This document shows positions 14,369-61,955 of a stretch of 64,000 nucleotides of DNA, piece by piece; position 1 is the first letter of the stretch, and the number at the start of each line of letters is the position of its first letter. The position numbers were made by a program, and so were the translations under genes. Below the pieces are notes generated by a model. It worked only from the letters and a program-made list of their open reading frames with translations. It ran no database searches and had not been told where the DNA came from. The DNA is from a virus. Location of the stretch: IMG/VR virus record IMGVR_UViG_3300048091_000425, one strand, 5' to 3'.

Positions 14369-14397
14369 ATAATAAACCCCTAGCGTTATACCTGCAA
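14369..14397 (-). promoter_or_regulatory. Sigma70 promoter with CTAG-centred spacer operator (copy 1)
   Basis: TTGCAG-gtataacgCTAGgggtt-TATTAT, 17-bp spacer. Confidence 0.7.
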
Positions 14398-14399
14398 GC

Positions 14400-14708
14400 C
14401 TATTTTTTCACTTTCTCTTTGCACAAGGCCCGCGCATTCTCCTCGAACCGCTTTTCGTTGCTCCGGTGCATCGCCATCGACATCAGCACATAGCTGACAA
14501 AGGACGCCAGGACATTGAGGGCGAAGATCGCATCAATCATGCCGTAATGCTGACAGGTACCCGAAGGCGTGCCCATGCTCCAAGAGAACGCCGGAGCTAG
14601 CTTGAAGATCACCAGATACACCGTCAGAAACAGGCTGGACATGAAGACCAGGCCGGCGACTATGTGCAGCCGATGATAGCCTTCGCTCGACAGCTCAAGG
14701 CGGCTCAT
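14400..14708 (-). CDS. Small membrane protein (2 TM)
   Basis: Two hydrophobic stretches. Confidence 0.6.
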   Translation of the reverse strand: MSRLELSSEGYHRLHIVAGLVFMSSLFLTVYLVIFKLAPAFSWSMGTPSGTCQHYGMIDAIFALNVLASFVSYVLMSMAMHRSNEKRFEENARALCKEKVKK

Positions 14709-15139
14709 TGGGAGAGTCCTTTGGCAGCGAGGTCGATCACACAGCTGGCCGCCAGCATCTGATCACCCAGCTCCGTGCAATTTCCATTAACTTTCAGGGT
14801 GTAGGCGGAGTCGAGGTTGAGTTCAACCGTCGAGCGGGCTGTGTCGATTACCAGAGCTTCGATGTCCGCTCGCTTCTGGTCACACAGGCATAGCGCGATG
14901 TGGTTCTCGCTGCACCAATCAATCGCTTCCTTGATCTGCGCCGGCGCGTTTTTCAGCTTGCTGATGTGGTCGAAGGCGACAATGACCGTGTCATTGGGGG
15001 GCTGGCGCCAGGTCTTGGCGCTTAACACGTCAACCGACAGAGGATCGACCAGGAACACATTTCCTATGGCTTTGATTGTCTGGAGCAAGTGCGTTTTGCC
15101 GGCGCCAGCGCCACCGGTAATCATGATGATGTGCATCAA
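14705..15139 (-). CDS. Small P-loop NTPase-like protein
   Basis: Walker A GGAGAGKT; Walker-B-like IVAFD. Confidence 0.65.
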   Translation of the reverse strand: MMHIIMITGGAGAGKTHLLQTIKAIGNVFLVDPLSVDVLSAKTWRQPPNDTVIVAFDHISKLKNAPAQIKEAIDWCSENHIALCLCDQKRADIEALVIDTARSTVELNLDSAYTLKVNGNCTELGDQMLAASCVIDLAAKGLSQ

Positions 15140-15196
15140 GGTTTTCCTGTAGGCGGCACCATTATGCGGCTGCCGCGAATTATCGTTGAACGTGGT

Positions 15197-15742
15197 TTAT
15201 GCCGCCTGAGCGCCCTGCTCTGTCGGCGTGTTCGTCATCTGACGCAAGGCCTGCTGCACAACTTCAACCATCTCGATGAAGTGCAGATACTGTTCGGTGG
15301 TCTTGGACTTCAGACAGTGCGGCCAGTCAGGCCCGAACACCGCAGATAGAAGCGAGCCGTCGTGATAGGGGTCACGCATGCCGCCAGGAATCTTGGAAAG
15401 CAGTTCCTGGTATGTCTCTAGATCGATTTCCTTATCGCGGCGGCGCTCTTTGAGGTAGCGCTTGGCTTCCCGCTCGGTGGCTTTGAAGTCGTATTCACTA
15501 GAGGCTGGGGCCCCGAGGTTGCCGCCCAGGTAGGTGGAATCGCAGCCGATGAAAAACGGCACAATGGTCGACCCCATGCTGCCCCAGTAGCCATTCCAGG
15601 TCTTGCCGTCATGAGTGATGGAGATCTTGCCGGCGTGGTGCGCGGTGTCCTCCAACATCACAGTGATGGTGCTGAAACCGTACTTTTTACCCTTGGCTTC
15701 GGTGATGACAATCTGGGTTACAACCTTCGTCGCAATTTGCAT
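15197..15742 (-). CDS. Phage-type hypothetical protein
   Basis: 'GKISI...W..YWGSMG.TI..FF..CD..YL' pattern. Confidence 0.65.
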   Translation of the reverse strand: MQIATKVVTQIVITEAKGKKYGFSTITVMLEDTAHHAGKISITHDGKTWNGYWGSMGSTIVPFFIGCDSTYLGGNLGAPASSEYDFKATEREAKRYLKERRRDKEIDLETYQELLSKIPGGMRDPYHDGSLLSAVFGPDWPHCLKSKTTEQYLHFIEMVEVVQQALRQMTNTPTEQGAQAA

Positions 15743-15846
15743 GAAATGTTCCAGTCCGTTGCATCCATGACCAGCACCAGCTGTCGGTAGCCTGGGCCGA
15801 AAGCACTGAACCAGAGCCTTGTTGGCGGTGTCAGTGAAGTTCTCGA

Positions 15847-15874
15847 ATTATACCGACCAAACAATGGTTGTCAA
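15847..15874 (-). promoter_or_regulatory. Consensus sigma70 promoter
   Basis: TTGACA-16 bp-TATAAT on the minus strand. Confidence 0.75.
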
Positions 15875-16008
15875 TTGCCACTACTGGCGAACAAGGGCAG
15901 TCCTGCAAGCAGGAAGCAAGTCGACTTCTCCGCGAAGCGGCTACTGCACCGCCGCCTACCGTGATAGTCTTATAGTTGACCCGACCAACATCACGAGAAT
16001 GTTCGCCC

Positions 16009-16257
16009 ATGCGAATTGAGACAGTCAGCTTTTTGAAAAAACACGCATCCAAGCTGCCCCTGGATGAGCCGTTGGTGATTACGCAAAATGGCATTCCTGC
16101 CTATGTGGTCGAGTCCTACGCGGATAGCAAGCGCCGCGAAGAGACTATCGCCCTGGTGAAAATGCTAGCGTCCAGTTCAGGCCAGTACGCCCAAGGCAAA
16201 CATTGCTCGACGGATGAGCTGAAGAGTCGGTTAAGCCGACGGTACGCTCACAGATAA
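16009..16257 (+). CDS. Orphan Phd/YefM-family antitoxin (PfiA-like)
   Basis: [31 protein letters not shown]; closely resembles the Pf4 prophage antitoxin PfiA as recalled from memory; terminator follows directly, no toxin. Confidence 0.8.
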
Positions 16258-16290
16258 GGGTTCCGCCGACTCCGGTCGCTGCCTGAAACG

Positions 16291-16325
16291 AAAAAGCCCC
16301 GGCGAGTTATCGCAGGGGCTTTTTT
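16291..16325. terminator. Bidirectional rho-independent terminator (repeat copy A)
   Basis: AAAAAGCCCC-GGCGAGTTATCGCA-GGGGCTTTTTT. Confidence 0.8.
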
Positions 16326-16387
16326 GTGGGGTTCAGATTGTGATCACCCAGAGCGCTTAAAATATTTATCAACAATTGCCTTGTGAA

Positions 16388-16406
16388 ATTACCCACTTAG
16401 GGTAAT
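16388..16406. promoter_or_regulatory. Palindromic operator candidate upstream of the mqsA-like gene
   Basis: ATTACCC-N5-GGGTAAT perfect arms. Confidence 0.5.
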
Positions 16407-16440
16407 CTCTGCACCTCAAACCAACCGAAGTAAGCAAAAA

Positions 16441-16860
16441 ATGTTAAGCAAAGATCAATGTGTGGCCTGTGGTCACAAGGGAACCGTCCCGTTTAGTAAT
16501 CGTTCGTTCGCAATCGCCCATAAGTACGTCACAGCAGATGTACATGGCATCAGCGGGGTCGAATGTTCGCATCCAGAATGCAAAGAGATTGTGTTCAATC
16601 CAGATGACAGCAGTGCAGTACGATATTCGGAGGCCCTGGACAGTTTAATTGCCAGGTACCGTGGGCACGAAATGCGTCGAATTCGAGGGAAGTTGGGCCT
16701 CACCCAAAAGCAAATGGTGGAGCGCGTTTGTGGTGGTGGGCACAATGCCGTGTCGCGGTACGAGAAAGGCGAAATTTGTGTTCCGACCCCACTGTGGGTC
16801 TTGATAGTCCTGTTGGACAAAAAACCCGAACTGTTGACCGAACTGAGCATGAAAATATGA
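16441..16860 (+). CDS. mqsA: Orphan MqsA-family antitoxin (Zn finger + Cro HTH)
   Basis: CVAC...CSHPEC and GGGHNAVSRYEKG...LLDKKPELL, matching E. coli MqsA GGGVNAFSRYEKG...LDKHPELL. Confidence 0.85.
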   Translation: MLSKDQCVACGHKGTVPFSNRSFAIAHKYVTADVHGISGVECSHPECKEIVFNPDDSSAVRYSEALDSLIARYRGHEMRRIRGKLGLTQKQMVERVCGGGHNAVSRYEKGEICVPTPLWVLIVLLDKKPELLTELSMKI

Positions 16861-16882
16861 GGTGGCCTCAGTTGAAGGCAAC

Positions 16883-16918
16883 AAAAAAGCCCCGGCGAGT
16901 GATCGTCGGGGCTTTTTT
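16883..16918. terminator. Bidirectional terminator (repeat copy B)
   Basis: AAAAAAGCCCCG-GCGAGTGATCGT-CGGGGCTTTTTT; near-identical to copy A. Confidence 0.8.
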
Positions 16919-16945
16919 CATAAATCAGGCATCGTTCGGTAAACC

Positions 16946-17503
16946 CTAGCGACCGTACACCACGCGTCGGTGATCCCCTCGGCGCCGAAACTCCACAACT
17001 ACGCTTTTTTCCTTCATTTCCACATTGGTGATCTGCCAGTTGAAGTACAACTGGATGCTGAGATCATGCACTTCTGCAGCAGTAAATCCGAAGTCCGGGT
17101 AACGCTGTTGAATTTCGAGCCTTTCTGCCTCGTACAGCTTCGCGGCATCAGTGTTCATAGACTCATCTTTCCAGTTGCCTGATGCCCGCCAGTAGCTTCG
17201 TTTTCGATCTTTAACAGACCAAAGAACATCATTCTCCACGGCAAAACTATCTATATCTGCGCCGGACATCACCCTGTCAGCTATTGCCTCCAGGTGCTTT
17301 CCAGAAGCCTCTGGATACCGCTTGTTAACAGCTTTGCGCACCTTTTTTGCCTTGTCCTTATCCATTTGCTCACCGATGTGAACAAAGGCCATAGACACGG
17401 CAAAAAACATCACAATGCAGATAAAGACCTTGGGGAAGAAAATGGCGCTGGCCAATAATGCCAACAGTACAGCGCCGGCAGACATTACAAAGTCGAGCAA
17501 CAT
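16946..17503 (-). CDS. Membrane-anchored hypothetical protein
   Basis: Two N-terminal TM segments. Confidence 0.65.
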   Translation of the reverse strand: MLLDFVMSAGAVLLALLASAIFFPKVFICIVMFFAVSMAFVHIGEQMDKDKAKKVRKAVNKRYPEASGKHLEAIADRVMSGADIDSFAVENDVLWSVKDRKRSYWRASGNWKDESMNTDAAKLYEAERLEIQQRYPDFGFTAAEVHDLSIQLYFNWQITNVEMKEKSVVVEFRRRGDHRRVVYGR

Positions 17504-17563
17504 TGGACACCCTCAATCGAGCGGCAAACGGCTGCAGGCAATGAAGCCTGCAGCTCCTCGGGA

Positions 17564-18355
17564 TTACTGCGCTTTGCCAGCCAGCGCTTTTGGAACCAAA
17601 CGATCCGGTGGGCTGTAGCCACCCATCATCTCACCGCTCTCCAGGTAAATGGTCGGCGTACCGCGCACACCCAGCAACTTGCCGAGTTCATACTGCGCCG
17701 CCACTTGGTTATCGCATGTCAGTTTCGCAATTGGGGTCTCGCCAGTGGCGTCATCCATAGCCTTGCGGGCATCTGGCGCACACCAGACGCTGACCATCTT
17801 CTGGTAGGTCTCGCTCTCCAGCCCCATACGCGGGAACGCCAGGTATCGGACTTCAATGCCCTGAGCGTTCAGCGCCGGCACGTCGTCGTGCAGTTTCGCG
17901 CAATACGGGCAATCAACATCCGTGAATACCGTGATGGTGGCTTTGCGGTTGGCAGCCGGGTAGATCACCATGTCCGACTCTTTCAGGCCTTTCAGCTTTT
18001 GCACTGCAACCTTCTTCTGGGCCTCATCGGTGACGTTGACGATGGCGCCGTCGACATTCTTGAAGAGGTTTCCTGCGAAGATATAAGCCCCATCCTCGGT
18101 GGCATACAGCGGGCGACCGCTGGCCAGTTCTACGGAGTACAGGCCGGCAATATCCGACTTCTGGATCGACGTGACACTCACGTCATTCTGAAGGATCTTC
18201 AGCGTGGCCATGATCTTGTCGTCATGGCGCGATTCGACCTTTTGTGGGGCAGCAGGGGCCTTCAAGACGTTACTGTTGCTTACATACCAAGCCGCAGACA
18301 CGCCAAGAAGGACGACCACCGTCGAAACCAGTGTGGATCTTTTAAGTGTTGCCAT
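17564..18355 (-). CDS. dsbC: Thiol:disulfide isomerase DsbC family
   Basis: FTDVDCPYC active site, cis-Pro GTPT, N-terminal dimerisation domain and membrane/signal segment; start MATLK at 18355. Confidence 0.9.
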   Translation of the reverse strand: MATLKRSTLVSTVVVLLGVSAAWYVSNSNVLKAPAAPQKVESRHDDKIMATLKILQNDVSVTSIQKSDIAGLYSVELASGRPLYATEDGAYIFAGNLFKNVDGAIVNVTDEAQKKVAVQKLKGLKESDMVIYPAANRKATITVFTDVDCPYCAKLHDDVPALNAQGIEVRYLAFPRMGLESETYQKMVSVWCAPDARKAMDDATGETPIAKLTCDNQVAAQYELGKLLGVRGTPTIYLESGEMMGGYSPPDRLVPKALAGKAQ

Positions 18356-18450
18356 TAAATTCTCCGAATAAACTGAGCGGGTTCTGTTTTGGATCTGATA
18401 TTGCGTATATATTGACAAGGATAACAAAAACACATTCATTCCGGTGATTC

Positions 18451-19222: not shown

Positions 19223-19234
19223 GCACACGCAAAG

Positions 19235-22988: not shown

Positions 22989-23105
22989 CTGAGTATCCCC
23001 ATGGATGAATCAAGGGGGTTCTGAAGGTGAATCCTACGGGGTGTCCAACTTGCGCTGGCTGTGACCGTAGGCGACCCTTCTTTACGTACCATCCGCTCTG
23101 CCGGC

Positions 23106-24503
23106 CTACGCCGGGGCCGTGGCATGAGCCACGACACTCGCAGATTGATTTTTCCATAGCCCGGTACGTCGCAGCACACACTCTTGAGCTGCCAGCACCT
23201 TAGCGATGCCGGGGGAACTATGGATCTTGCCATCTGTGCAAAACGCCAGCAACGCCGAGTACACGTCACGCTGAATCAGCCCGCTGCCATCGCCAAAGGC
23301 GTGCCAGCGCAGCGATAGCGGTTTTTTCGTGTAAGTCTCGGTGCAGTGATCGTATTGCGACATCTTGAGCCTCCAGGTATCCAACTCGACCACCTTGCCG
23401 CCAGCACTTTCAGCCTTGCGTTTCAGGTGGTTGACGAAATAGCCCGGTGCCCGGTTCCTCACCGACTTTCCGAACATCTTCTGGAAAGCCTTGTATGACA
23501 ATTTTTCGATATTCCAGGTATTTGCCTGCTTGAGCAGGTTGTTTACCAATTCGCCATGCTCGCTTTTTCGTAGTCCCTGCAGGGCCCTTTCGGTGTTAGC
23601 GATCTGCCGGCGAACGTCGAGCAAGCGATTCGAACTCGCAAGGCGCTGGCCTTTTATCCAGCGGCCTTTTTCATCGAAACAGTGTGGATTGGTAGCCCTG
23701 ACAGACCGATCTGCTTTTCGCTGCAGGCGGCGCAAGGTCTTGGCGCACGGGTCTACGCCGGGACAAAACTTCTGGAGAGAAGCGCCAGTATCACTGAAGC
23801 TGGCGACCGTGGAAGGGCCGATATCCAGGCCACCCGAGGCATTGACCGACTCACAGGTAACCGGAGGCTTTCCTTCAATCGTGAGCTGGACTAAAAACCG
23901 TTTCTTGCCGTTGATATTTCGCCACACAACGCGGGAGAACTTCACCCGGCCAGCCAGAGCCTCATCCAGATATTCATCTTTCCCTGGCGCTGGAAGGATG
24001 ACCGGCATCAGCAAGCCAGCCCACTGGACGCACGCAGTTTCTGGCACGTAGCGGATGGCGGAAGCGGAGCTCTTACCTTCAATCGAGTGCAGGGGCCGCT
24101 TGCGGCCCTTGAAGCGTGGCAGGCCGCGCTTCTTGAAACTGTATTCATCCAGGGCTGAGAAAACACGCTTGGCCAGGGTCTGTGGCTCGTGGGCGCCGAG
24201 GTGATCACGCCAAAGGCGGTTTTTCAGCCCCGTCCCAAACGAAGACAGTGCGTATTCCGAAAAACCATAGGTATCGCGCAGAGATTTGTAGCCGGCGCGT
24301 TTGGCCAAGATATCTTTGACATCCCGCAGCTCTGTCCACAGAGGGTCTCTGCGCATGGCCTTGAGACGACCAATCCCCTCTGACAGCAGTGCATTGTACA
24401 GTCGTTTTGCAGCCTCGAACCGCTTGCGCATCACCGCCACGTCGCGACCTTTGGTCACGAGCGGCAGGGTGATGACGAAACTCGGTGTCTTGGCTTTTTT
24501 CAT
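23106..24503 (-). CDS. tnpB: TnpB RNA-guided nuclease
   Basis: RuvC D (GLDIGP), E (NIEKL), D (QRDVYSA) intact. Confidence 0.9.
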   Translation of the reverse strand: MKKAKTPSFVITLPLVTKGRDVAVMRKRFEAAKRLYNALLSEGIGRLKAMRRDPLWTELRDVKDILAKRAGYKSLRDTYGFSEYALSSFGTGLKNRLWRDHLGAHEPQTLAKRVFSALDEYSFKKRGLPRFKGRKRPLHSIEGKSSASAIRYVPETACVQWAGLLMPVILPAPGKDEYLDEALAGRVKFSRVVWRNINGKKRFLVQLTIEGKPPVTCESVNASGGLDIGPSTVASFSDTGASLQKFCPGVDPCAKTLRRLQRKADRSVRATNPHCFDEKGRWIKGQRLASSNRLLDVRRQIANTERALQGLRKSEHGELVNNLLKQANTWNIEKLSYKAFQKMFGKSVRNRAPGYFVNHLKRKAESAGGKVVELDTWRLKMSQYDHCTETYTKKPLSLRWHAFGDGSGLIQRDVYSALLAFCTDGKIHSSPGIAKVLAAQECVLRRTGLWKNQSASVVAHATAPA

Positions 24504-24907
24504 ACGTCTTTTTGTTGCTCAATGTACTGCTTGATCACTTCAAGCGGTGCGCCACCGACCGTGGAAACGAAGTAGCTGTTTGTCCATAGGGTGGGTAGTC
24601 TGGACTTCAAAAAGCCAAACTCAGATCGCAGCAGGCGTGAAGATTTTCCCTTGATGTGCTTGATCAGGCGGTGGATGCCAAATTGCGGATCTACCTCTAC
24701 CAGCAAGTGAACGTGATCAGGCATCACTTCGAGCTCAATCAGATCACACTCAAGCTCTATACAGGTCTCCTGTATAATTTGCTTGAGGCGGACGTCTGCC
24801 CCATCAATCAAGACGGCCCTACGGTACTTCGGGCACCATACAACGTGGTACTTACAAGAGTACACGACGTTGTTATTGCGCTTGTATTGGAGTTTGAATT
24901 CGGACAT
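24500..24907 (-). CDS. tnpA: IS200-family Y1 HUH transposase
   Basis: YHVVWCPKYRR, DHVHLL (HUH), catalytic YIEQQ. Confidence 0.95.
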   Translation of the reverse strand: MSEFKLQYKRNNNVVYSCKYHVVWCPKYRRAVLIDGADVRLKQIIQETCIELECDLIELEVMPDHVHLLVEVDPQFGIHRLIKHIKGKSSRLLRSEFGFLKSRLPTLWTNSYFVSTVGGAPLEVIKQYIEQQKDV

Positions 24908-25032
24908 GAATTGACTATACAGCTACGGGCTACATAGTCAAGAGCAATTACCACCCGCTAGACCCCATGGATGAATCGAGGCTTGCGCGGCTGATCTGGT
25001 CATTTCCATGTAATCCTCACGGTTAACAGCGC

Positions 25033-26223: not shown

Positions 26224-26736
26224 CTACTCCACCGCCACCGGTTTCAACACGCCGGCCAACACAGCCAGACCAAGCTCAGTGAAGACGACGTCGAAGTACT
26301 TTTCATTTGGCGCCAAACTGGCCGGCATCTCAGCGATGAGTCCCTTGTCACGGCAGGCAACCGCCGCTCGGAATTCTGAGCGCCCGCACTCACTTGATTC
26401 AGTGGTTGTCAGATCCGAGTCAAAACCCTTCAGGAAGACCCGCTGCGGCTCGGTGAGCTTGCCCAGGATTTTTGTAGCCTGCAGGTCGATCAGGAAGCGT
26501 TCCACCTGCTCAGCGGGGATCTCAGCCTTGGCCCAGGTCGCAAATGACGTACGAGTCATGTTGCCATGCTGCTCATTGGGGGAACCAGCTTGGCCGCTCA
26601 AGACGCGATAGCGCAGGCAATCGGTGTCGGTGACAGCGTCGTACAGCTTGTACTGGGCGCCTTCATCCAGCACCTCGCGAACGCCGAGCTTTCCATCGCT
26701 GTAGAAGCCACCTTTTTTGATTTCAGACTTTTTCAT
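26224..26736 (-). CDS. Hypothetical protein
   Basis: 170 aa; C-terminal wHTH-like 'FTELG'. Confidence 0.65.
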   Translation of the reverse strand: MKKSEIKKGGFYSDGKLGVREVLDEGAQYKLYDAVTDTDCLRYRVLSGQAGSPNEQHGNMTRTSFATWAKAEIPAEQVERFLIDLQATKILGKLTEPQRVFLKGFDSDLTTTESSECGRSEFRAAVACRDKGLIAEMPASLAPNEKYFDVVFTELGLAVLAGVLKPVAVE

Positions 26737-27184
26737 GAGGATTCATCCCAAATGGTTGAGCGGCGCCGAATACCGGCAAGCGACTTACATCGACAGGAGC
26801 CTCAAAACGGTCAACCAAATCTGGCAGTTGAACGAGATTAAAGCCATCAACCAAGGCCTCAAGCACTTGGCCGATCTGCACGCCGGCGTCGCCCAGCATG
26901 CCCAGGCCTTCCTCCGAATCGATGGACACAGGAGGTTCGTGATACAGCACCCCAGAGGTGCTGGAGGTATGGTCGCTGCCACTCTGGAGCACCGAGAACT
27001 CCACCATGCGATCAGCGCTGACCGTCAGCACGGCGAGATCCTGAGGCCCGATATTGACCTCATCGACCACGTGCTCGTTGAAATAGGGCATTTCGCACGC
27101 TTGCATACGCTTGCGAAGGGTTGTCTCGGCGCCGGCGATGACTTCGAAGCCAGCGTCGATCAGCATCTGGGTTGTGACACTCAT
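26723..27184 (-). CDS. Hypothetical protein
   Basis: 153 aa downstream of promoter copy 2. Confidence 0.6.
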   Translation of the reverse strand: MSVTTQMLIDAGFEVIAGAETTLRKRMQACEMPYFNEHVVDEVNIGPQDLAVLTVSADRMVEFSVLQSGSDHTSSTSGVLYHEPPVSIDSEEGLGMLGDAGVQIGQVLEALVDGFNLVQLPDLVDRFEAPVDVSRLPVFGAAQPFGMNPHEKV

Positions 27185-27216: not shown

Positions 27217-27244
27217 ATAGTATCACTCTAGAGATTAATTACAA
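27217..27244 (-). promoter_or_regulatory. CTAG-operator promoter (copy 2)
   Basis: TTGTAA-ttaatctCTAGagtga-TACTAT, 16-bp spacer. Confidence 0.7.
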
Positions 27245-27258: not shown

Positions 27259-27281
27259 AAACCCCGAATTAACGGGGTTTT
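27259..27281. terminator. Terminator
   Basis: AAACCCCG-AATTAA-CGGGGTTTT. Confidence 0.7.
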
Positions 27282-28182: not shown

Positions 28183-28503
28183 TTAATGTTGAGACGGAAT
28201 ATCGCCGGATTCCGGCGCTGTAGCGATTTCGAGTGCGTCCTCGAATACGCAGTTTTCGACAATGATGCCTTCACCCGAGGCACGAATGATGTCCGGGAAA
28301 TCGAGCAATTTGATCTCAATGTCCGCTGCCACAACACTTTCCAGAGTCGGGAAGTAGGTGCACTCGAAAATCACGAAACTTCCACCATCAACCACGTCAA
28401 CATGGTTACGCTCAAGGTCGACCAGACACGTGTAGCCTGGGCCTGGATTTTCGGTTCGGCGAGTAGAGCCATTCCAGTCGACGAAAAATCCCTTGATCTC
28501 CAT
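28183..28503 (-). CDS. Acidic hypothetical protein
   Basis: 106 aa after promoter copy 3. Confidence 0.65.
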   Translation of the reverse strand: MEIKGFFVDWNGSTRRTENPGPGYTCLVDLERNHVDVVDGGSFVIFECTYFPTLESVVAADIEIKLLDFPDIIRASGEGIIVENCVFEDALEIATAPESGDIPSQH

Positions 28504-28564: not shown

Positions 28565-28594
28565 GATTATGTATTACTCTAGAGATTACCGCAA
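28565..28594 (-). promoter_or_regulatory. CTAG-operator promoter (copy 3)
   Basis: TTGCGG-taatctCTAGagtaata-CATAAT. Confidence 0.6.
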
Positions 28595-32037: not shown

Positions 32038-32931
32038 TTATGGGTGATTACGCCATTTCGCTGCTAGGCCCTTAAGTTCGTCGCGGATGACGTTCAAATT
32101 AAGTGGGCTTAGACGCTTCTTATCGGCAATAAAAGCGGTCAGCAGAAACCCCTCCCCGAACCATTTGCGCCCAGGTTTGACGTAGCAAGAAACCGGAGCA
32201 TTGATTGTCTCTTGAAGAGCCAGCATGTCAGCCGAGACAGGAACATACTTCTTGTTCAACAGAACCCAAACAATAACACCCTCAGTCTTCAGCTGGTAAT
32301 CATAAGCAACCAGCGCATGACCATGGAAATCTCCACTGAAAGTTTTGTAGACCGAGGCGATAAACTCCTGAGAAAGCAGATTATCCTCATCCAAAATCCC
32401 GCAATCTTCGGAAAACGAGAAGGTCTTGAAATAGCCTTCCAACAGCGGCAATCCGTGAATACCTCGATCCATTTTAGTCGCCGGGTAATCGAAAAGCTTG
32501 CGCTCCGGATCCACCTGGCGCATCAGCATGAACAACGGCTCGACGCCACACAGTTCAGTGACCTCCACAAGATCGGTCAGCGGAATACTCCGGTCAGTGC
32601 CCACGTAACGCTCGAAAATATTCTTGAGCAAGGCCCTGGCGCTGTGCAGGCCTGGTTTTGCCTCCAACTGCGCAAGCGAGGTCACATCCACCGTAGTTCT
32701 GGCTCTGGCGAGATCGTAGGAGGTCTGCAGGCTCATCCAGAAATCAGCCTTCTCGTTGAGTACCTTCTCGAGGCGGATGGCTGTCTCCGGGGTGATTGCG
32801 GCCTTGCCGGTCAGAATCCGACTGATGCTGGCGGGAGACATGCCCATGGCCACTGCCAGTTCTGAAGGCCGGACATTCATATGGGGCAGGATGTCAGAAG
32901 AGATGATTTCGCCGGGGGATCTGATCGTCAT
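32038..32931 (-). CDS. higA: HigA-family antitoxin HTH fused to an unknown ~210-aa domain; no toxin
   Basis: SPGEII...ELAVAMG.S...ISRIL.GK..ITPE.AIRL....ADFWMSLQ..YDL. Confidence 0.8.
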   Translation of the reverse strand: MTIRSPGEIISSDILPHMNVRPSELAVAMGMSPASISRILTGKAAITPETAIRLEKVLNEKADFWMSLQTSYDLARARTTVDVTSLAQLEAKPGLHSARALLKNIFERYVGTDRSIPLTDLVEVTELCGVEPLFMLMRQVDPERKLFDYPATKMDRGIHGLPLLEGYFKTFSFSEDCGILDEDNLLSQEFIASVYKTFSGDFHGHALVAYDYQLKTEGVIVWVLLNKKYVPVSADMLALQETINAPVSCYVKPGRKWFGEGFLLTAFIADKKRLSPLNLNVIRDELKGLAAKWRNHP

Positions 32932-32960
32932 GATGAGGCTTATCCTGAGGTAATGATCCG

Positions 32961-32994
32961 ATTGTAGTTGCTCCTTGCGTAAGGCGCAACTACA
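32961..32994 (-). promoter_or_regulatory. higA promoter covered by a 32-bp inverted repeat
   Basis: TTGCGC-17-TACAAT; TGTAGTTGC-tCCTT-gcgt-AAGGc-GCAACTACA. Confidence 0.7.
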
Positions 32995-33025
32995 TAGTCA
33001 ATACTCAGCAAATAACTTGCTTAAC

Positions 33026-33319
33026 CTACCAAGTGCCCGTGAAGGAGTACTCGAGCTGACGGGCAGCCTCGGAACGCATGTTGCGCCAGACTATGAGCCA
33101 CTCATCCAAGGTGTAATCACTCAAGCGAGGCACCATCACCGAGCAGCTCGACCAGTTGGCCGCTCCGCCACCGGTGAAGTACAGGTAGCCATTCCCTTTG
33201 ACCAAACGCTCTTTTGCGCCGATCTTGGCCAGCGCGTCGTTGACAGCGGCAAAGGTCAGTCGAGGACGCTGCTCCGATGCGGTCTTGTCTTTAACGGTGG
33301 TGCGTTTGGAGGTCGACAT
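33026..33319 (-). CDS. Hypothetical protein
   Basis: 97 aa after promoter copy 4; no RelE/HigB features seen. Confidence 0.6.
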   Translation of the reverse strand: MSTSKRTTVKDKTASEQRPRLTFAAVNDALAKIGAKERLVKGNGYLYFTGGGAANWSSCSVMVPRLSDYTLDEWLIVWRNMRSEAARQLEYSFTGTW

Positions 33320-33353: not shown

Positions 33354-33382
33354 ATAGTATTACGCTAGGGGTTAATTAGCAA
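33354..33382 (-). promoter_or_regulatory. CTAG-operator promoter (copy 4)
   Basis: TTGCTA-attaacccCTAGcgtaa-TACTAT. Confidence 0.75.
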
Positions 33383-36982: not shown

Positions 36983-37483
36983 TTATTGGGCGAAATCGAG
37001 AAACACAGGATCTTCGATATACCGCCAGGTCTCAACGAAGGTATCCGCATTCCAACCACCGACGCAGGTGTTGTACGCCGAGCTATCAAAATCGTAGACG
37101 CCGGCCTCGGTGAAGGTTTCCGTGTTGGATTTGTTAACCCCGTACAAGTAACCATCCTTGTCCAGGACAGCGTAGTCATCTTGGCCGATGTGCAGCGCCT
37201 TGCCTGGATGAAGCTCCAGCAGGCGACGGTAGTGACCCAGAACCTGATCGTAGGTCAAAACTTCGACCAGCAGCTCACGATAGGCCGTCAGAAGCCCGGC
37301 TTCGGTGTAGGCGTCCTGATCGGTGTCGGTGGCCAGAAGTCCATGCTCATCGCAGAAGGCAACAAACGCTTTGGCATCAGCAAACTCGCGAATCACCTTG
37401 CTGGTGTTGTCGAGGACGTTCAGTACGGCCTCTTTTACGTCATCTACTTGATGAACGGTGGCGCTTTTGTCGTTTGCGGTCAT
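36983..37483 (-). CDS. Hypothetical protein (paralogue)
   Basis: AYNTC.GGW...FVETW shared with the neighbour. Confidence 0.75.
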   Translation of the reverse strand: MTANDKSATVHQVDDVKEAVLNVLDNTSKVIREFADAKAFVAFCDEHGLLATDTDQDAYTEAGLLTAYRELLVEVLTYDQVLGHYRRLLELHPGKALHIGQDDYAVLDKDGYLYGVNKSNTETFTEAGVYDFDSSAYNTCVGGWNADTFVETWRYIEDPVFLDFAQ

Positions 37484-37548: not shown

Positions 37549-37577
37549 ATTGTATTATTCTAGGGATTCATTAGCAA
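37549..37577 (-). promoter_or_regulatory. CTAG-operator promoter (copy 5)
   Basis: TTGCTA-atgaatccCTAGaataa-TACAAT. Confidence 0.75.
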
Positions 37578-38090: not shown

Positions 38091-38348
38091 TTATTCGTCC
38101 TTACGGGTTTCGACGGTGAAGTCGATGGTGTCGTAGCCACCAAAGCCGCTGTGCAGCTCATCCCGGATGTTCATCGCATGAAAGGCGCCGAACTCGCAGA
38201 CGTCTTGGCAGAAGCGAGCTTCGCTGATGCCGGCAGGCTTGATAACCTTTACACCGGTCTTGAAGTCGCAGCGCTCAGCTTTGAATTTGGTGCCATTGCG
38301 ACTGGTGTGCCCAAACTTGCGTTCAGCCATCGGAGTGTTGTTCAACAT
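38091..38348 (-). CDS. Hypothetical protein
   Basis: 85 aa after promoter copy 6. Confidence 0.55.
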   Translation of the reverse strand: MLNNTPMAERKFGHTSRNGTKFKAERCDFKTGVKVIKPAGISEARFCQDVCEFGAFHAMNIRDELHSGFGGYDTIDFTVETRKDE

Positions 38349-38428: not shown

Positions 38429-38457
38429 AATGTATTACCCTAGGGCTTCACGCGCAA
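38429..38457 (-). promoter_or_regulatory. CTAG-operator promoter (copy 6)
   Basis: TTGCGC-gtgaagccCTAGggtaa-TACATT. Confidence 0.75.
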
Positions 38458-51459: not shown

Positions 51460-51819
51460 TTAAGCTTGCGGCGCCTTCCGGGCCATGAGCGCAGAGAGAT
51501 CGTAGATCGGGCCGCTGGAGATGATCGGCTGGCCACCCTCGACACTGATCACCTGCACCAGAAAGGCATTGCCGGCGATCCAGTACACAAAGCAAAAAGC
51601 CCATACGCAGAGCTTAATCTTGCGGGTGTTCAGGTAGGTGATTTTAGCGTCATTGCACCAAAGCAAGAGCATCACTACGGGCAGGGTGAAGTAGGCCGCA
51701 CCCCTTGCCTGATCAAGGAAAACCATGCACCAAGCCAGAGCAATGGTCATTATGGCGATGCCGAGGGTGAACCACCGCGATGGAAAATCAATTCGGCTTT
51801 TTTCAATGGCAAAGGACAT
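51460..51819 (-). CDS. Membrane protein (about 3 TM)
   Basis: Hydrophobic stretches. Confidence 0.6.
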   Translation of the reverse strand: MSFAIEKSRIDFPSRWFTLGIAIMTIALAWCMVFLDQARGAAYFTLPVVMLLLWCNDAKITYLNTRKIKLCVWAFCFVYWIAGNAFLVQVISVEGGQPIISSGPIYDLSALMARKAPQA

Positions 51820-51827
51820 GGCTAGAC

Positions 51828-52046
51828 TCAGTTGGAGGGCTGCGTGATTCGGGACAGGCTCAATTCAGCGCTACGCTGACGGCCACGGGCCTTTTCCAGC
51901 TGGGCGGTGAGCCGCTTGTGGGGCAAGGTGCCTGGAATGAATTTCACGACGGCCTGTTCGAGCCGAGAAACTTCCCGTGCCGCTTCGTCTGCCATGGCTT
52001 TGATGGCGTTGCGCTTAGATGGCTTCATTCCTGAGATTCCATTCAT
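51828..52046 (-). CDS. Small basic coiled-coil protein
   Basis: After promoter copy 7. Confidence 0.55.
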   Translation of the reverse strand: MNGISGMKPSKRNAIKAMADEAAREVSRLEQAVVKFIPGTLPHKRLTAQLEKARGRQRSAELSLSRITQPSN

Positions 52047-52078: not shown

Positions 52079-52107
52079 AATGTATGCCTCTAGGGATTAA
52101 CTGGCAA
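52079..52107 (-). promoter_or_regulatory. CTAG-operator promoter (copy 7)
   Basis: TTGCCA-gttaatccCTAGaggca-TACATT. Confidence 0.7.
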
Positions 52108-52396: not shown

Positions 52397-52397
52397 A

Positions 52398-53970: not shown

Positions 53971-54804
53971 CTACAGAAGCGACAGCGCCCCTGCCGTGTA
54001 CAGATCCGATTCCTTACCAGTTATGGTCGCCATGCGCTCGGGGAACTCAGGGCCGATTACCAGCAACTTGCTGGTGCCAGAATCGAAGCCAACGTAATGC
54101 ACGTTGGAAGTGTCGAGGGTCTCTTTCAACACCTCGAGGTCAGCGTCTGTCTTGATGCCCATGCCGATCTTACCGAAACCTGCCGTCAACCAACCGCGCA
54201 GTGCGGGATCGGACAGGCACAGCTTCATGGAGCCGTCACTGGAGCCCTCCAGCGGCGTCAGGAGGCTCGCCATCATCGTCAGGCAACCCAGTGCTGCCAT
54301 TTTGGCCGCAACCTCCTTGGGCAGCGGCTGCTGCTTGGAGAAAACGAACCACTGGCGAGCGATCAGGTCGGCGCCGGCGAGCGGAACAGCCTTTTGAGCA
54401 GATGGCGTGAATACGCCCTGGGCAGCAGTGGTCACCGTCGGCACACCACCAAACTCGGTAAGCCCGCGATCCGTGATGACCGTCGACAGCTCTGGATTCT
54501 CAAGCGAGCCCCGGAGTTCAGCCTCGTCAGCCACCATTTCGACCACAACCGCGTCATGTTCGATCAGCTGCAACAGCCTCTGGTAGTTCAGCGCCGAGAG
54601 AACCCGGTACTCGCCGAAGTCATCCATAGAGTTGAGCAGCTGAGCGCAGGCCGCGTGAGCCACTTGGGCCGCCAGCTTCCCCTTGCGCATGTTGAGATCG
54701 CGACGGGCGAAGATCTCCATGAGCCACATCGGCACGTCAGATTGACCCTCTGCAGGTTCAAGAATGCTGATGGATGGTGAACCATTTGGATTACATTCAG
54801 CCAT
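53971..54804 (-). CDS. pth2: Tandem-domain peptidyl-tRNA hydrolase, Pth2 type
   Basis: RRDLNMRKGKLAAQVAHA and ITDRGLTEF..PTVT (catalytic K/D/T); second Pth2-like half W..AG.GKI...VIGP....ITG..L.LL. Confidence 0.8.
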   Translation of the reverse strand: MAECNPNGSPSISILEPAEGQSDVPMWLMEIFARRDLNMRKGKLAAQVAHAACAQLLNSMDDFGEYRVLSALNYQRLLQLIEHDAVVVEMVADEAELRGSLENPELSTVITDRGLTEFGGVPTVTTAAQGVFTPSAQKAVPLAGADLIARQWFVFSKQQPLPKEVAAKMAALGCLTMMASLLTPLEGSSDGSMKLCLSDPALRGWLTAGFGKIGMGIKTDADLEVLKETLDTSNVHYVGFDSGTSKLLVIGPEFPERMATITGKESDLYTAGALSLL

Positions 54805-54868: not shown

Positions 54869-54897
54869 AGCGTATTACGCTAGGGGTTTACTTGCAA
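54869..54897 (-). promoter_or_regulatory. CTAG-operator promoter (copy 8)
   Basis: TTGCAA-gtaaacccCTAGcgtaa-TACGCT. Confidence 0.75.
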
Positions 54898-57521: not shown

Positions 57522-57525
57522 GTTC

Positions 57526-57702: not shown

Positions 57703-57795
57703 GGGTTCTCCTGGGATTTCCTGGGGCGGAAATGCCCCTTCTCTACGCACACGGCCCCGCGTGTGCGGGGCTTGTGAGTTTAGCGTTGGGCTCAA

Positions 57796-58107: not shown

Positions 58108-58174
58108 GCTGATTTCCCTTCTATTGCTTTGACAGGTTAGTCATTTCTAACTTGCTCAGTTCCCGCCCCTCGGT

Positions 58175-58621: not shown

Positions 58622-58723
58622 GTGATGCTCCAGGTCTGGTCTATGGGGCTGAATCGGCGCCTCCCCTACTGACTTAGCCCCGCTTTTGAGGGCGGGGCTT
58701 CGATCTGAAGCGAAACAAATAGT

Positions 58724-59083
58724 CTATTGATCAGGTTCATGATCAGGTTTTTCAGCACATGCCTCGATTTCAGCGTTCTTGCGCTTGGCAAGAAGCATGT
58801 CCCTGACGATGAACGCGGTGATCAGCAGGGAGATTAGGCTACCCACCATGAGCATGGTCAACGGCACCCTCCAGTCATACCACAGCCAGCCTGACTCCCA
58901 TATCAGACTATCCATTCCAAATAGTAGTTGGAAGACGCTACCCGCCATTAGGATCGAGACCACCACCGTTAGAAATCGGTACCCGGCCAGCCAGAAACCC
59001 AGGCACATCATGCTCAAGCCAACGCAGACTATTACCCAATCGCAGGTGGAGCCGTATTCCGACAGTGTTAGCGAAGTTTCCAC
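58724..59083 (-). CDS. Membrane protein (about 3 TM)
   Basis: Hydrophobic stretches, GAGGTG RBS. Confidence 0.6.
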   Translation of the reverse strand: METSLTLSEYGSTCDWVIVCVGLSMMCLGFWLAGYRFLTVVVSILMAGSVFQLLFGMDSLIWESGWLWYDWRVPLTMLMVGSLISLLITAFIVRDMLLAKRKNAEIEACAEKPDHEPDQ

Positions 59084-59178
59084 ATCACCACCTCTTGGGA
59101 CGAGCGTTAATTGACGTTAAATCTATCGAAATTGGGCAAATTATGCATTCAGCATAAACTCCCTAATTTCCCTACATT

Positions 59179-59388
59179 TCAGGCCATCAGTTTTTGAAGA
59201 CCGTCAGCGTAGCCTTCCCAAGTATCTACGCAGCCGTTCGTGACGACCGAGACAAGCCTAGTTTCGGTGTCTAGCCAATACACCTTCCCCCTGGCTCCGT
59301 GGGCGTTGTGGCCGTGATCCTGGATCACCACTGTGTCCTCCAGCGCCAAATCATCGAACGTCACGCTGGCAAATTGTTCATTGGCCAT
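59179..59388 (-). CDS. Small hypothetical protein (KOW/SH3-like)
   Basis: 69 aa. Confidence 0.55.
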   Translation of the reverse strand: MANEQFASVTFDDLALEDTVVIQDHGHNAHGARGKVYWLDTETRLVSVVTNGCVDTWEGYADGLQKLMA

Positions 59389-59782
59389 CGGACAGCCTCG
59401 CTATCTTGAGCAAGCACCTATCACACGTCACAGCTTCTGACTCGGTGCAGCTCCAGTCAGAGGAGCCTTGTGGGTGGGCGCCGCAAAACGCGTCCCAGGC
59501 GCCAGGCTTGACCGCGTGAACCACGCTGCCGTGATCCCGCTCATTTCCGTTCGCTCGCCGGCCAGTCTTCTGCAGGGCCAGATAGCGTTTGGACTGCGCC
59601 ACTGGCGTAGCCTCAGGTGGGAGCTCAGCGGTGGATTCAGGCTGGCGCTCGACGAGCTGGCCGGAGTCCTTCACCGATTTCATCAGTAGATCAAACGTAG
59701 TCATTGAGGATCTCCTCCAGCCTGAGAGCTCAGCCCTGTTCCAGGGAATCAGCCGATTCGCTTCTTTCTGAGCTTCTTGCAC
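59378..59782 (-). CDS. Zn-binding hypothetical protein
   Basis: H...CG...TCDRC; true start probably internal MTTF. Confidence 0.6.
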   Translation of the reverse strand: MQEAQKEANRLIPWNRAELSGWRRSSMTTFDLLMKSVKDSGQLVERQPESTAELPPEATPVAQSKRYLALQKTGRRANGNERDHGSVVHAVKPGAWDAFCGAHPQGSSDWSCTESEAVTCDRCLLKIARLSDGQ

Positions 59783-60237
59783 TTCTTTCTGAGCTGCTTC
59801 ATGCGCTCTGGATTTGCCCTCATTGTTTTAGCCATTGCATCGAAGAATTTATCCAAGGTATCAGCAAACTGATGGGCGCCAGCCTCGGTGCTGAACCTGG
59901 AACTGATGGCCACCCCATGGGAGAACCCAGCCTTTTCCAACTCCATGAATTTTGGGGTCAGGCGGACGTAAAAATCGCTGTCGAAGTAGACCATCGTCCA
60001 GAGGCTATCGCGGCGAAATGGATCACGACGCACGGTGCCTGGGATTTTGGTGATGTCGCCCTCAAGACCATGTTCCTTCATGTAATGGTCTTGAGGGATG
60101 AAAACCATCACGTCCACAGGCTTGGCACGCTCACGGGCTGCGACCAGCTTCCCACAGCACGGGGCAGTAAACGCCGGAACTGAGTAGCCTTTAAGCTTTT
60201 CGTTGCAGTACGGGCAACTCAAAAGATCTGGGGTCAT
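59749..60237 (-). CDS. Zinc-ribbon protein
   Basis: CPYC...CCG. Confidence 0.6.
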   Translation of the reverse strand: MTPDLLSCPYCNEKLKGYSVPAFTAPCCGKLVAARERAKPVDVMVFIPQDHYMKEHGLEGDITKIPGTVRRDPFRRDSLWTMVYFDSDFYVRLTPKFMELEKAGFSHGVAISSRFSTEAGAHQFADTLDKFFDAMAKTMRANPERMKQLRKKCKKLRKKRIG

Positions 60238-60467
60238 TATGAATACCGGCTCAATCTGAAGGTTTAAGGATTTTGAGGAACGCCATCATGAACAAAGTCG
60301 AGAGTACGGCGGCAACGCCAGACCTGGACAAGTATCCTTCCGGGACAGGCGGGAGCGTGATAACTGCCAATATGGCAGAAATCATTGCGCTGAAAAGAAG
60401 GGAAGTGACAAGTTTAAGTATCATTCAGAAATCTCGACATTCGATGGCAGAAGGAATCAATGGAGTG

Positions 60468-60496
60468 ATTGTATTACTCTAGGGATTCACTTGCAA
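60468..60496 (-). promoter_or_regulatory. CTAG-operator promoter (copy 9)
   Basis: TTGCAA-gtgaatccCTAGagtaa-TACAAT. Confidence 0.75.
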
Positions 60497-60762
60497 CCAA
60501 ATAATGCCAACAATTTGAACATCTTTCTCGCGCTGAAGATGCGGCGGCGCTCGTCACGCCGGCCTGTAAATTCATCAGTGCGAAGATAGCCATGCTCGGC
60601 AGCAAGGCCTTCACCCCGTCTAATGTTCACCTCGTCGGCCATGCCCAAGTCGACCGCCTGCCAGCCCTTCTCCAGGTACGTGTACAGGCTATGGCGCTGG
60701 GCACCGGTTATGCCAGGAAGACGCGCTTCCACCTCAGTAGGCAACGCGTCAACAAGGCCCAA
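60487..60762 (-). CDS. Hypothetical protein
   Basis: 91 aa. Confidence 0.55.
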   Translation of the reverse strand: MGLVDALPTEVEARLPGITGAQRHSLYTYLEKGWQAVDLGMADEVNIRRGEGLAAEHGYLRTDEFTGRRDERRRIFSARKMFKLLALFGCK

Positions 60763-60764
60763 GG

Positions 60765-61370
60765 CTACATGGCAGATTCAGGAGAGATCGCCAATCCGCG
60801 AGCGGCACGCAAGCGGCTACGCTCTTCACGTAGACCAGCTTCGATATCGGCACGGCATTTTTTCAGGAAGTCCTGACCTGAAACCACGTAGACACTGTGG
60901 GGGGACGCCAGCCACATCAAGACCTGCTCCATGGTTTCGCAGTCATCCGCGCTCAGTTTCGGCGGCTTCACAGCGCCCGGCTCCATCATCACCGCTTCCA
61001 AACTGCGGACACCGCTGTTTGTGGTACTGCTCCGGCGATTTTCCAGCGCCCACTCGGCGATGTAGCCCTCTTCCTTGTCCCCAATCACGTCGCACATCAG
61101 GTCGGCTTTCTGCAAGAAGCCCAGGCCATTGTTTGTTCCCAACCAGCGCACCATACTGGCCGCGACCGTGGCATGACGCTGGGTCAGAATACCGTCGCCC
61201 GGCGAAACAACGTGCATCAGCATGCCGTTCGGGCCGTCGAAATCCGGGTGATAACCATTGTCTTGCGCCAGCAGCTCCTGCCAGTTCTTTAGAAACACCT
61301 GCTCACCCAGACAGCCTTCGCGGGCCGGTCTGACGGGGTCGTGCTGGAAAGCCTGGTTCGCTTTGCTCAT
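60765..61370 (-). CDS. Hypothetical protein
   Basis: 201 aa; 'A.S.V.WLGTN.G..FL' pattern. Confidence 0.65.
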   Translation of the reverse strand: MSKANQAFQHDPVRPAREGCLGEQVFLKNWQELLAQDNGYHPDFDGPNGMLMHVVSPGDGILTQRHATVAASMVRWLGTNNGLGFLQKADLMCDVIGDKEEGYIAEWALENRRSSTTNSGVRSLEAVMMEPGAVKPPKLSADDCETMEQVLMWLASPHSVYVVSGQDFLKKCRADIEAGLREERSRLRAARGLAISPESAM

Positions 61371-61479
61371 TATTCAAATCCTGATGGTGGGGATATCCAT
61401 ACCCCATTAAGCGCGAATGACGATGCTGGATGCAAGCAGCCGGGCTGGCGCCGGAAGTGGCGACTTCTCTCTTGCCGCT

Positions 61480-61911
61480 CTACTCCTCGCTGTCTTCGTC
61501 ACTCGCCGGTGCGAGATCGTACTCAAGAGTGGCAACGGCGCCGGCATCCAGGGATCGCAAGCAGTCTTTGTCGTTTTCGCAGGGCTTCACGACAGGGAAC
61601 TCGCCGAGGAAGGCAGTGCCTTTGACCTCTTCAACCAAGATGCCGACGTCGTTTGGACAGGATTTGCGCTCAACCTCGACCTTGAAGGTATTTTCGCTTT
61701 CAGCTCGCACCAAAGCGCCGGTGAACGTGCACCGCCCCTTCATGTCGATCAAGCCTGCCTGGGAATTACCGCCGTGCAGGTTGTCGAGGCTGGTCATGGT
61801 CGAAACCTGGGTGGTTTCCGCCAGCGCCGGCTGTGCCAGGCACATCAGGCCAAAAGACATGACTGTGATGAGTGCTGCCGAGGTGCGCATTTTCATGAAA
61901 ATCCATTCCAT
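61480..61911 (-). CDS. Putative exported protein
   Basis: Signal peptide ending ALA; four Cys. Confidence 0.65.
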   Translation of the reverse strand: MEWIFMKMRTSAALITVMSFGLMCLAQPALAETTQVSTMTSLDNLHGGNSQAGLIDMKGRCTFTGALVRAESENTFKVEVERKSCPNDVGILVEEVKGTAFLGEFPVVKPCENDKDCLRSLDAGAVATLEYDLAPASDEDSEE

Positions 61912-61926
61912 AACTGTTGTGTCAGC

Positions 61927-61955
61927 AATGTATTACCCTAGGGGTTCAGTTGCAA
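61927..61955 (-). promoter_or_regulatory. CTAG-operator promoter (copy 10)
   Basis: TTGCAA-ctgaacccCTAGggtaa-TACATT. Confidence 0.75.

Follow-up and report, generated by a model that had tools for sequence, protein, structure and literature searches.

A predicted CTAG-centred operator in the promoters of a Pseudomonas megaplasmid and a candidate two-domain KorA-like repressor

Introduction

A stretch of 64,000 nucleotides from the IMG/VR virus record IMGVR_UViG_3300048091_000425, which is called the window here at its full length, contains ten minus-strand promoters between positions 14,369 and 61,955 that carry the tetranucleotide CTAG between their -35 and -10 hexamers. This recurrence raises the question of what the CTAG-centred element is and which protein reads it. 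A sequence-only reading of the window had proposed that a single repressor, to which no gene was assigned, acts on all these promoters, and had compared them with the KorA operators of IncP-1 plasmids and the CUP repeats of IncN plasmids. From the comparisons described below, the element is very probably the operator of a KorA/TrfB-type repressor, and the favoured reader, to which we assign a probability of roughly 0.6, is a plasmid-encoded protein with two KorA-like domains in tandem.

A family of ten promoters with a fixed CTAG

The ten sites are all present on the minus strand, with the C of CTAG at 14380, 27228, 28579, 33365, 37560, 38440, 52090, 54880, 60479 and 61938. Eight of them follow the order TTGYNN, 8 nt, CTAG, 5 nt and TAYNNT, with a spacer of 17 bp, and the hexamers of the family are good sigma-70 matches. 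In the second and third copies CTAG lies 7 nt (27228) and 6 nt (28579) after a -35 that is nearer by 1 and 2 nt, respectively, and the spacer measures 15-17 bp. At 14380 the arms around CTAG are inverted with the register of CTAG unchanged. A 24-nt matrix built from the copies scores the ten at 29-36 bits, against 8.3 bits for the runner-up position in the window. The strict pattern TTGNNN-N6-8-CTAG-N5-TANNNT has nine matches on the minus strand and none on the plus strand, with an average of 0.2 in shuffled sequence; the tenth copy (28579), which falls outside it, has CATAAT as its -10. CTAG itself is scarce in the window (54 occurrences for 123 expected from dinucleotide frequencies), and a promoter near 53.1 kb that is otherwise similar, TTGCAA-N16-TAAAAT, has no CTAG. 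The sequence-only reading had described the ten look-alike promoters, the shift of 1-2 nt in copies 2 and 3, the flipped arms of the first copy, the promoter free of the motif and a rarity of CTAG that made chance unlikely, and all of this is borne out by the counts and scores given here. The likeness among the copies extends over ~35 bp only, and the sequence further out is unrelated.

Restriction of the element to the megaplasmid

The window is part of a Pseudomonas megaplasmid of ~1 Mb. It is 84% identical over long stretches to pPL1 of Pseudomonas silesiensis (1.17 Mb) and mostly 92-98% identical to plasmid unnamed1 of Pseudomonas serbica IT-P366 (1,059,468 bp; hereafter C1, in genome G001), the closest complete replicon, where all ten window sites are conserved. 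A matrix scan of the assembled C1 detects about 25-28 strong sites, nearly all of them between 633 and 920 kb, with two more at 58.8 and 97.0 kb. Other megaplasmids have ~17 sites (pPL1) and ~10 sites (pPLMAXa). The exact 16-nt motif gives 18 matches in G001, which lie on C1 among the matches listed, and a looser pattern search of this genome places every site that resembles the motif on C1. Among 400 further genomes of the genus, just two have the exact motif, with one match each. The chromosome does not carry the motif equally often, and in this respect too the earlier proposal of a replicon-borne system has held. The use of one operator type in common by many promoters, a trait of KorA/TrfB repressors, is seen here.

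Two unlike half-sites around CTAG

Twenty-two promoters with clear hexamers were oriented. One of them, which precedes the operon of a single-domain KorA-like gene described below, is a perfect palindrome, and the other 21 were analysed. Every one of these pairs a half-site of one type, B, with a half-site of another type, A, and the combinations B+B and A+A never occur. The B half reads GTAT-N-AC-N-CT, with GTAT invariant and A at -5 and C at -4 each present in 19 of the 21 copies; the A half reads R-T-N-A-A-Y-C-Y-CT, with an invariant A at -6 and C at -4 in 20/21. Two sites of the regulon (window 52079-52107 and C1 58819) have the B half GTATGCC instead of GTATTAC, and GTATGCC is the universal type in pPLMAXa. 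The whole element, with CTAG at its centre, covers 20 bp: it takes up the 17-bp spacer and runs 3 nt into the -10. Its B half adjoins the -10 in 15 promoters and the -35 in six, always in the same register. Four more copies (C1 673086-677360) have neither a -35 nor a -10 of their own and sit 30 bp upstream of promoters with another, symmetric operator (motif A, below).

Conservation separates the element from the promoter around it. When six orthologous promoter pairs of the window and pPL1 were aligned, the 20-bp element was 92.5% identical (111/120 positions), as against 83% for the -35, 81% for the downstream coding sequence and 65-72% for the non-coding flanks. Since the element is found in both orientations and also away from promoter cores, and has changed less than the -35, it is predicted to be a protein-binding site distinct from the promoter hexamers. 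The dyad protein site envisaged before is retained in part: a protein site separate from the hexamers agrees with the flips, the copies outside promoters and the conservation of the spacer, but two different half-sites do not form a simple dyad. MerR-type activation is excluded by the 17-bp spacer, since MerR-type promoters hold their dyad in an over-long spacer of 19-20 bp, in contrast to the 17 bp of eight copies and the 15-17 bp of the other two.

The second operator, motif A (TGTT-N3-ACTATAGT-N3-AACA), lies on the -10 of ~11 promoters between 643 and 679 kb of C1. It is distinct from the CTAG motif, and neither the window nor the promoter of either KorA-like gene contains it. A CTAG element stands 30 bp upstream of four motif A promoters, and the two promoter types occur in tandem at C1 662.3 kb; the arrangement of the two motifs at the same promoters suggests dual control. 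Two PapB-family genes, at C1 644.5 and 654.2 kb, lie within the motif A block.

KorA-like genes of the megaplasmids

A KORA/TrfB match first surfaced in a joint scan of 100 pooled open reading frames (ORFs) downstream of the C1 sites outside the window. C1 and pPL1 possess one single-domain KorA-like gene each that passes the Pfam cut-off, both behind a CTAG-type promoter with near-symmetric arms, and the layout of autoregulation (a repressor gene behind its own operator type) is thereby seen for the single-domain genes. The C1 protein (70 aa, 95687-95896) scores 33.4 bits on Pfam KORA (PF16509), for a cut-off of 26.7, and is encoded by the second gene behind the perfect palindrome GTAAGCCT-CTAG-AGGCTTAC. 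The two single-domain proteins are 52% identical, and their genes lie in different contexts. In the C1 95687-96906 region, a gene for a secreted DNA/RNA non-specific endonuclease (PF01223, 1e-45; signal peptide-like N-terminus) appears to belong to the same transcription unit as the KorA-like gene behind the palindromic promoter. In pPL1, two near-duplicate promoter regions bracket the single-domain gene at 391.6-392.6 kb, and have in common the operator and ~25 bp downstream of it (…CCATACAAACAA…).

A longer KorA-like gene was found by tblastn at C1 744291-744758. Its product, of 155 aa, has two KorA-type domains with different recognition helices, ...ASIHITVNRY in domain 1 and ...ALSQAVKRY in domain 2. 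The exact protein is recorded on a 1,077,129-bp contig, and is indexed in the window's own genome inside a stretch that begins 36.7 kb past the window end. The single repressor that had been postulated without a gene thus acquires a candidate, which probably, though by no means surely, is the right one. The C1 and pPL1 versions are 79% identical, with the core recognition-helix residues of both domains the same bar conservative V/I exchanges, and by this measure the gene is conserved like the backbone. Two tandem homologues (P0006 and P0007) are 61-63% identical, and the relatives P0004-6 and P0008 carry PF16509. A word-indexed search of 5.8 billion proteins, which finds relatives sharing exact 5-residue words, yielded only six relatives of the tandem form, and the form therefore appears rare. 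Upstream of the tandem gene (C1 744755-745260; also in pPL1), a gene for a 146-aa protein with a weak BrnA-like tail overlaps the tandem start. The upstream region, which is conserved, contains the palindrome GCATAG-G-CTATGC, which may be the own operator of that operon.

Structural modelling is consistent with the family assignment. The AlphaFold2 (AF2) model of the tandem protein consists of two four-helix domains, with a predicted local distance difference test score (pLDDT) of 90 and a predicted template modelling score (pTM) of 0.78. A Foldseek comparison with the PDB returned KorA (2W7N, 5CM3 and 5CLV) at probability 0.99 and 33-35% identity, followed by ArdK (7BCB), with E-values that are weak because the domain is small. 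In a profile search of PDB sequences, domain 2 was aligned to the recognition helix of KorA (TrfB) with an E-value of 0.03. The KorA-type helix-turn-helix (HTH) domain by which membership of the KorA/TrfB family is judged is found by Pfam, the PDB profile and Foldseek. The C-terminal alpha-beta dimerisation domain is absent: the proteins end ~10 residues past the HTH, and the Pfam match spans positions 1-60 of the 84-position profile. For the single-domain protein, a homodimer model passes its controls with a score of 0.75, as opposed to 0.00 for the best control; this score is reached by 20/30 proteins solved as pairs and by 1/23 solved as single chains. At least 95% of the contacts are common to the runs, and pLDDT is 92 or more. 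In the modelled interface, helix 1 (residues 4-15) packs against the C-terminal helix (61-70), which brings the C-terminus of one subunit close to its partner's N-terminus and makes a head-to-tail fusion geometrically plausible. The model supports the fusion idea and is not a demonstration of binding.

Operator arms and recognition helices on other plasmids

The operator type is linked to TrfB-related genes well beyond the megaplasmids. At 14 further plasmid or contig loci, a short TrfB-related gene is followed by a CTAG-type dyad 10-20 bp past its stop codon, and at 13 of them the dyad lies inside a promoter of the form TTGNNN, GTAxxxxx-CTAG-xxxxxTAC, whose final TAC begins the -10 (TACNNT). 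The Pseudomonas loci are those of P. aeruginosa pNY7610-NR, pPALA50 and pPAC1.3a, P. fluorescens pG20, Pseudomonas sp. BA28 and a Pseudomonas metagenome-assembled genome (MAG); those of other genera come from three Stutzerimonas plasmids, three Halomonas plasmids, Burkholderia gladioli p3 and a Sulfuriferula MAG. Paraburkholderia pOLGA2 is the exception, with GTATGCC arms around a GTAA centre and no TTGNNN -35 or TACNNT -10 evident. On the smaller plasmids, series of small genes next to umuDC, SRAP and ardR genes begin with the same operator.

Across these loci the arms of the operator vary with the recognition helix. Helices of the type ...STV[HS][LI]TV.RY pair with GTATTAC arms, those of the type ...GTVSKAVRSY with GTATGCC arms, and those of the type ...STV[SGA]DAV.RY with [GA]TACGCC arms. 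The 174-kb plasmid of S. frequens offers two of these combinations at once: a tandem protein whose two ...STVHLTVKRY domains are near-identical is accompanied by symmetric GTATTAC/GTAATAC promoters, and a separate single-domain gene (...GTVSKAV...) stands beside a GTATGCC dyad. In the window's plasmid family, a domain 1 of I-T-V class goes together with GTATTAC as the conserved half. In pPLMAXa (0.95 Mb), the tandem homologue is 46% identical and its domain 1 (...DSVYKAIKRY) belongs to the K-A class; its operators, among the matches listed, always pair GTATGCCT with RTAAANCC, in both orientations. By sequence, then, the tandem forms fit the same helix-to-arm rule as their single-domain relatives. 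A more distant tandem KorA-like protein, with the helices ...ENLYDAVQRW and ...QSLYDAVRRW, is encoded by Shewanella algae pKC-Na-R1 amid small genes that include an annotated antirestriction ardR and a pair of S24 peptidase and Y-family polymerase genes.

A single-chain repressor as the candidate reader, and its alternatives

A mechanism can be proposed from these observations. The promoters would be of sigma-70 type, and the spacer together with the first 3 nt of the -10 would form the 20-bp operator of a KorA/TrfB-family repressor encoded by the plasmid. In the simplest mechanism, the bound repressor would occupy the DNA between the -35 and -10 and occlude RNA polymerase; because the block would lie between the two boxes, the operator would work in either orientation. 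The tandem protein is the best candidate because the strict B+A pairing is accounted for only if the reader has two different domains. Its domain 1 would read the B half and its domain 2 the A half, and this one protein would keep ~25 transcription units, whose genes are mostly orphans, switched off at steady state. A broader proposal, at which we arrive with even odds, is that the protein represents a 'heterodimer' in a single chain, whose two KorA-type domains have diverged and each read their own half-site by the helix-to-arm rule common to the single-domain relatives. Half-sites and domains would be modular and re-paired in evolution, with GTATTAC here, GTATGCC in pPLMAXa and symmetric sites in Stutzerimonas, and the proteins would form an undescribed short TrfB-like subfamily with CTAG-centred spacer operators. 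A burst of expression after transfer might be expected of such a regulon, and the 'establishment' role proposed in the sequence-only reading fits by analogy with the transcriptional overshoot of plasmid R388 after transfer (PMC3937220) and with the small-gene strings on smaller plasmids. A leading-region regulon of this kind would lie beside oriT and the relaxase; profile searches with the relaxase families PF03432 and PF07514, made to place the leading region, gave no match.

Several observations weigh against assigning the regulon to the tandem protein. With 19.2 bits on Pfam KORA, it falls below the cut-off. Its promoter has no conserved CTAG-type site, the weak site in C1 not being kept in pPL1, and the usual signature of autoregulation is therefore missing. 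Domain 2 is given the A half solely by elimination, and in pPLMAXa its helix differs at several positions with the A half hardly changed. The co-variation of helix and arm for the tandem form amounts to one lineage-level change plus one symmetric case, and the TrfB-related gene of P. kielensis has no adjacent operator. Finally, no fold family can be recognised for most regulon proteins, so the site could be read by some other DNA-binding protein that has escaped recognition.

This last point leads to a rival that we consider improbable without dismissing it, namely that the element is the operator of some other plasmid protein or heterodimer and that the nearness of TrfB genes elsewhere does not transfer to the regulon. 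The share of regulon proteins without a Pfam or PHROG family (>90%) and the tandem gene's lack of an autoregulatory site speak for it; against it, the helix-to-arm relation spans 14 loci and the three tandem cases conform to it, and the motif is not repeatedly accompanied by any other DNA-binding family. A somewhat smaller chance is given to the single-domain KorA-like protein acting as a homodimer. That protein has the Pfam match above the cut-off and a homodimer model that passes its controls, in C1 and pPL1 alike a CTAG-type promoter drives its operon, as is classic for autoregulation, and the site of its own gene consists of two A-like halves. A homodimer, however, leaves all 21 heterotypic sites unexplained, and the gene's own site reaches only 14 bits on the regulon matrix. 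Moreover, the C1 and pPL1 versions have diverged to 52% identity, with different helices, operators and contexts of their own, whereas the regulon motif does not differ between the plasmids.

It is also very unlikely that there is no operator at all, the promoter being a cassette copied by duplication or recombination, or the spacer being one that RNA polymerase favours. Joint conservation of -35, spacer and -10 in most copies and the good sigma-70 hexamers would suit such an origin, but the element is inverted in 6/21 promoters with the hexamers unchanged, is found away from promoter cores, has changed less than the -35 where diverged plasmids are compared, and is surrounded past ~35 bp by sequence unrelated among the copies. 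Least probable of all are two regulators encoded in the window itself, an orphan MqsA-like antitoxin (16441-16860) and a HigA-like HTH fusion (32038-32931). The former matches PF15731 (1.1e-17), and its own promoter contains ATTACCC-N5-GGGTAAT, which has TAGGGTAAT in common with the B half; however, C1 lacks its cassette (16326-16884) and a search of G001 found no homologue, although the ten sites are conserved there and the regulon is complete, and on this ground MqsA was rejected as the regulon repressor. The HigA-like gene sits within the 33365 unit, but its own promoter (window 32935-33010) is overlapped by a different inverted repeat, GTAGTTGC...GCAACTAC, which makes it an unlikely repressor of the regulon. 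The tandem two-domain protein remains the preferred reader after these comparisons. As for these two genes themselves, a paralogue of the HTH part of the HigA-like protein occurs at C1 909.7 kb. The mqsA cassette has its promoter palindrome and near-identical terminator hairpins on both sides, and its pPL1 protein is 96% identical for a backbone of 84%; it looks like a recently moved gene cassette.

Genes behind the promoters

The units are described here from left to right; all promoters and genes are on the minus strand. The flipped promoter at 14369-14397 (TTGCAG, GTATAACG-CTAG-GGGTT, TATTAT), in which the B half adjoins the -35 and the operator covers 14372-14391, heads the 14380 unit, whose first gene (13588-14319) encodes a GmrSD_N (DUF262) protein of 243 aa (PF03235, E 1.3e-14). 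The promoter at 27217-27244 (TTGTAA, ATTAATCT-CTAG-AGTGATAC, -10 TACTAT) has a terminator hairpin directly upstream (27259-27280), and its 27228 unit begins with an orphan of 153 aa and no family (26723-27184). An orphan of 106 aa, likewise familyless (28183-28503), is the first gene of the 28579 unit, behind the promoter at 28566-28594 (TTGCGG, GGTAATCT-CTAG-AGTAATAC, with TACATA or CATAAT as -10). The promoter at 33354-33382 (TTGCTA, ATTAACCC-CTAG-CGTAA, TACTAT), kept in pPL1, drives the 33365 unit; the first protein of this unit, of 97 aa (33026-33319), belongs to the phage family phrog_9154 of unknown function (PHROG E 7.5e-20) and has no Pfam match. The 37560 unit, with the promoter at 37549-37577 (TTGCTA, ATGAATCC-CTAG-AATAA, TACAAT), starts with an orphan of 166 aa (36983-37483), and the 38440 unit, whose promoter at 38429-38457 (TTGCGC, GTGAAGCC-CTAG-GGTAA, TACATT) is kept in pPL1, with one of 85 aa (38091-38348); neither has a family.

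Further along, the promoter at 52079-52107 (TTGCCA, GTTAATCC-CTAG-AGGCA, TACATT), kept in pPL1 and bearing the GTATGCC type of B half, precedes the 52090 unit, which opens with two ORFs for orphans of 72 and 119 aa without a significant family (51460-52046). The 54880 unit has its promoter at 54869-54897 (TTGCAA, GTAAACCC-CTAG-CGTAA, TACGCT; kept in pPL1) and encodes first a PTH2-domain protein of 277 aa (53971-54804; PF01981, E 1.7e-12). The top matrix score, 36 bits, is that of the promoter at 60468-60496 (TTGCAA, GTGAATCC-CTAG-AGTAA, TACAAT), followed in the 60479 unit by two ORFs for orphans of 57 and 162 aa (59749-60424), again familyless. The last promoter, at 61927-61955 (TTGCAA, CTGAACCC-CTAG-GGTAA, TACATT), is kept in pPL1 and heads the 61938 unit, with a first gene for an orphan of 143 aa and no family (61480-61911). 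Pfam and PHROG searches with ~45 regulon proteins of the window and the 100 pooled ORFs downstream of C1 sites left almost all of them without a family, and revealed no further DNA-binding family in the window's units. An IS605-type insertion (window 22989-24998; TnpA of 135 aa and TnpB of 465 aa) is missing from C1, where its flanks join exactly (window 22988/24999 = C1 818088/818087).

Comparison with known systems

Pseudomonas megaplasmids of 1 Mb consist mostly of genes of unknown function, and one switch over ~25 units would tell which of them act together and offer a handle to turn them on. If the proposal is true, its reader would be a natural fused two-domain repressor on an asymmetric operator, with a half-site rule visible across many plasmids and a readable recognition code for short TrfB-like repressors. 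Such a system would be useful for studying the evolution of operator specificity and for building orthogonal, orientation-free repressible promoters. The pair of operator and gene also marks small-gene regions of many clinical and environmental plasmids of Pseudomonas, Halomonas and Burkholderia, for which no description was found. Global regulons of the KorA family are already well known; the literature searched held no description of a short subfamily without the dimerisation domain, of a CTAG-centred operator in the promoter spacer, or of a fused two-domain form with a heterotypic operator.

The CUP repeats of IncN plasmids are long, of hundreds of bp. Like them, the family described here consists of repeated promoter-bearing elements that, in IncN, stand before several establishment genes under common repression; unlike them, only ~35 bp are alike among the ten copies and the flanks are unrelated. 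The comparison with CUP repeats drawn in the sequence-only reading is for this reason a poor match. The comparison with KorA and its operators proves apt, since the best candidate repressor is a protein of the KorA/TrfB family.

KorA (TrfB) of the IncP-1 plasmids RK2/RP4 (2W7N, 5CLV) dimerises through a domain at its C-terminus, and its target is a short, symmetric inverted repeat located on the -10 box (PMC9723621). The HTH fold family, the plasmid-borne gene and one operator type in the core of many promoters, as for the OA operators, are features in common. In contrast to KorA, the proteins described here lack a dimerisation domain, the operator of 20 bp fills the spacer around CTAG, and in the megaplasmids it is asymmetric, with one chain of two domains as its proposed reader. 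ArdK of the IncW plasmid R388 (7BCB; ArdK/ArdR in IncN pKM101) is a repressor of the KorA family and controls promoters for maintenance and anti-restriction functions (PMC9723621, PMC3937220). It also has a C-terminal dimerisation domain, and its homodimer breaks dyad symmetry by rotating one domain to bind direct repeats over the -35 (PMC9723621). ArdK acts in this way on five promoters, whereas ~25 promoters with a spacer site are concerned here. The element differs from both the inverted repeat on the -10 and the direct repeat on the -35 in overlapping only the first 3 nt of the -10 and in having unlike halves; unlike in the ArdK homodimer, its asymmetry lies in the half-site sequences themselves, which would fit two different fused domains. 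The nearest mechanistic parallel found is Mce3R of Mycobacterium tuberculosis, which is reported to be a repressor with a double TetR motif and a non-palindromic site (PMC11667970). Mce3R differs from the tandem KorA-like protein in being chromosomal, ligand-responsive and of the TetR family, and resembles what is proposed here in that a single chain with two DNA-binding modules acts as a pseudo-dimer on an asymmetric operator.

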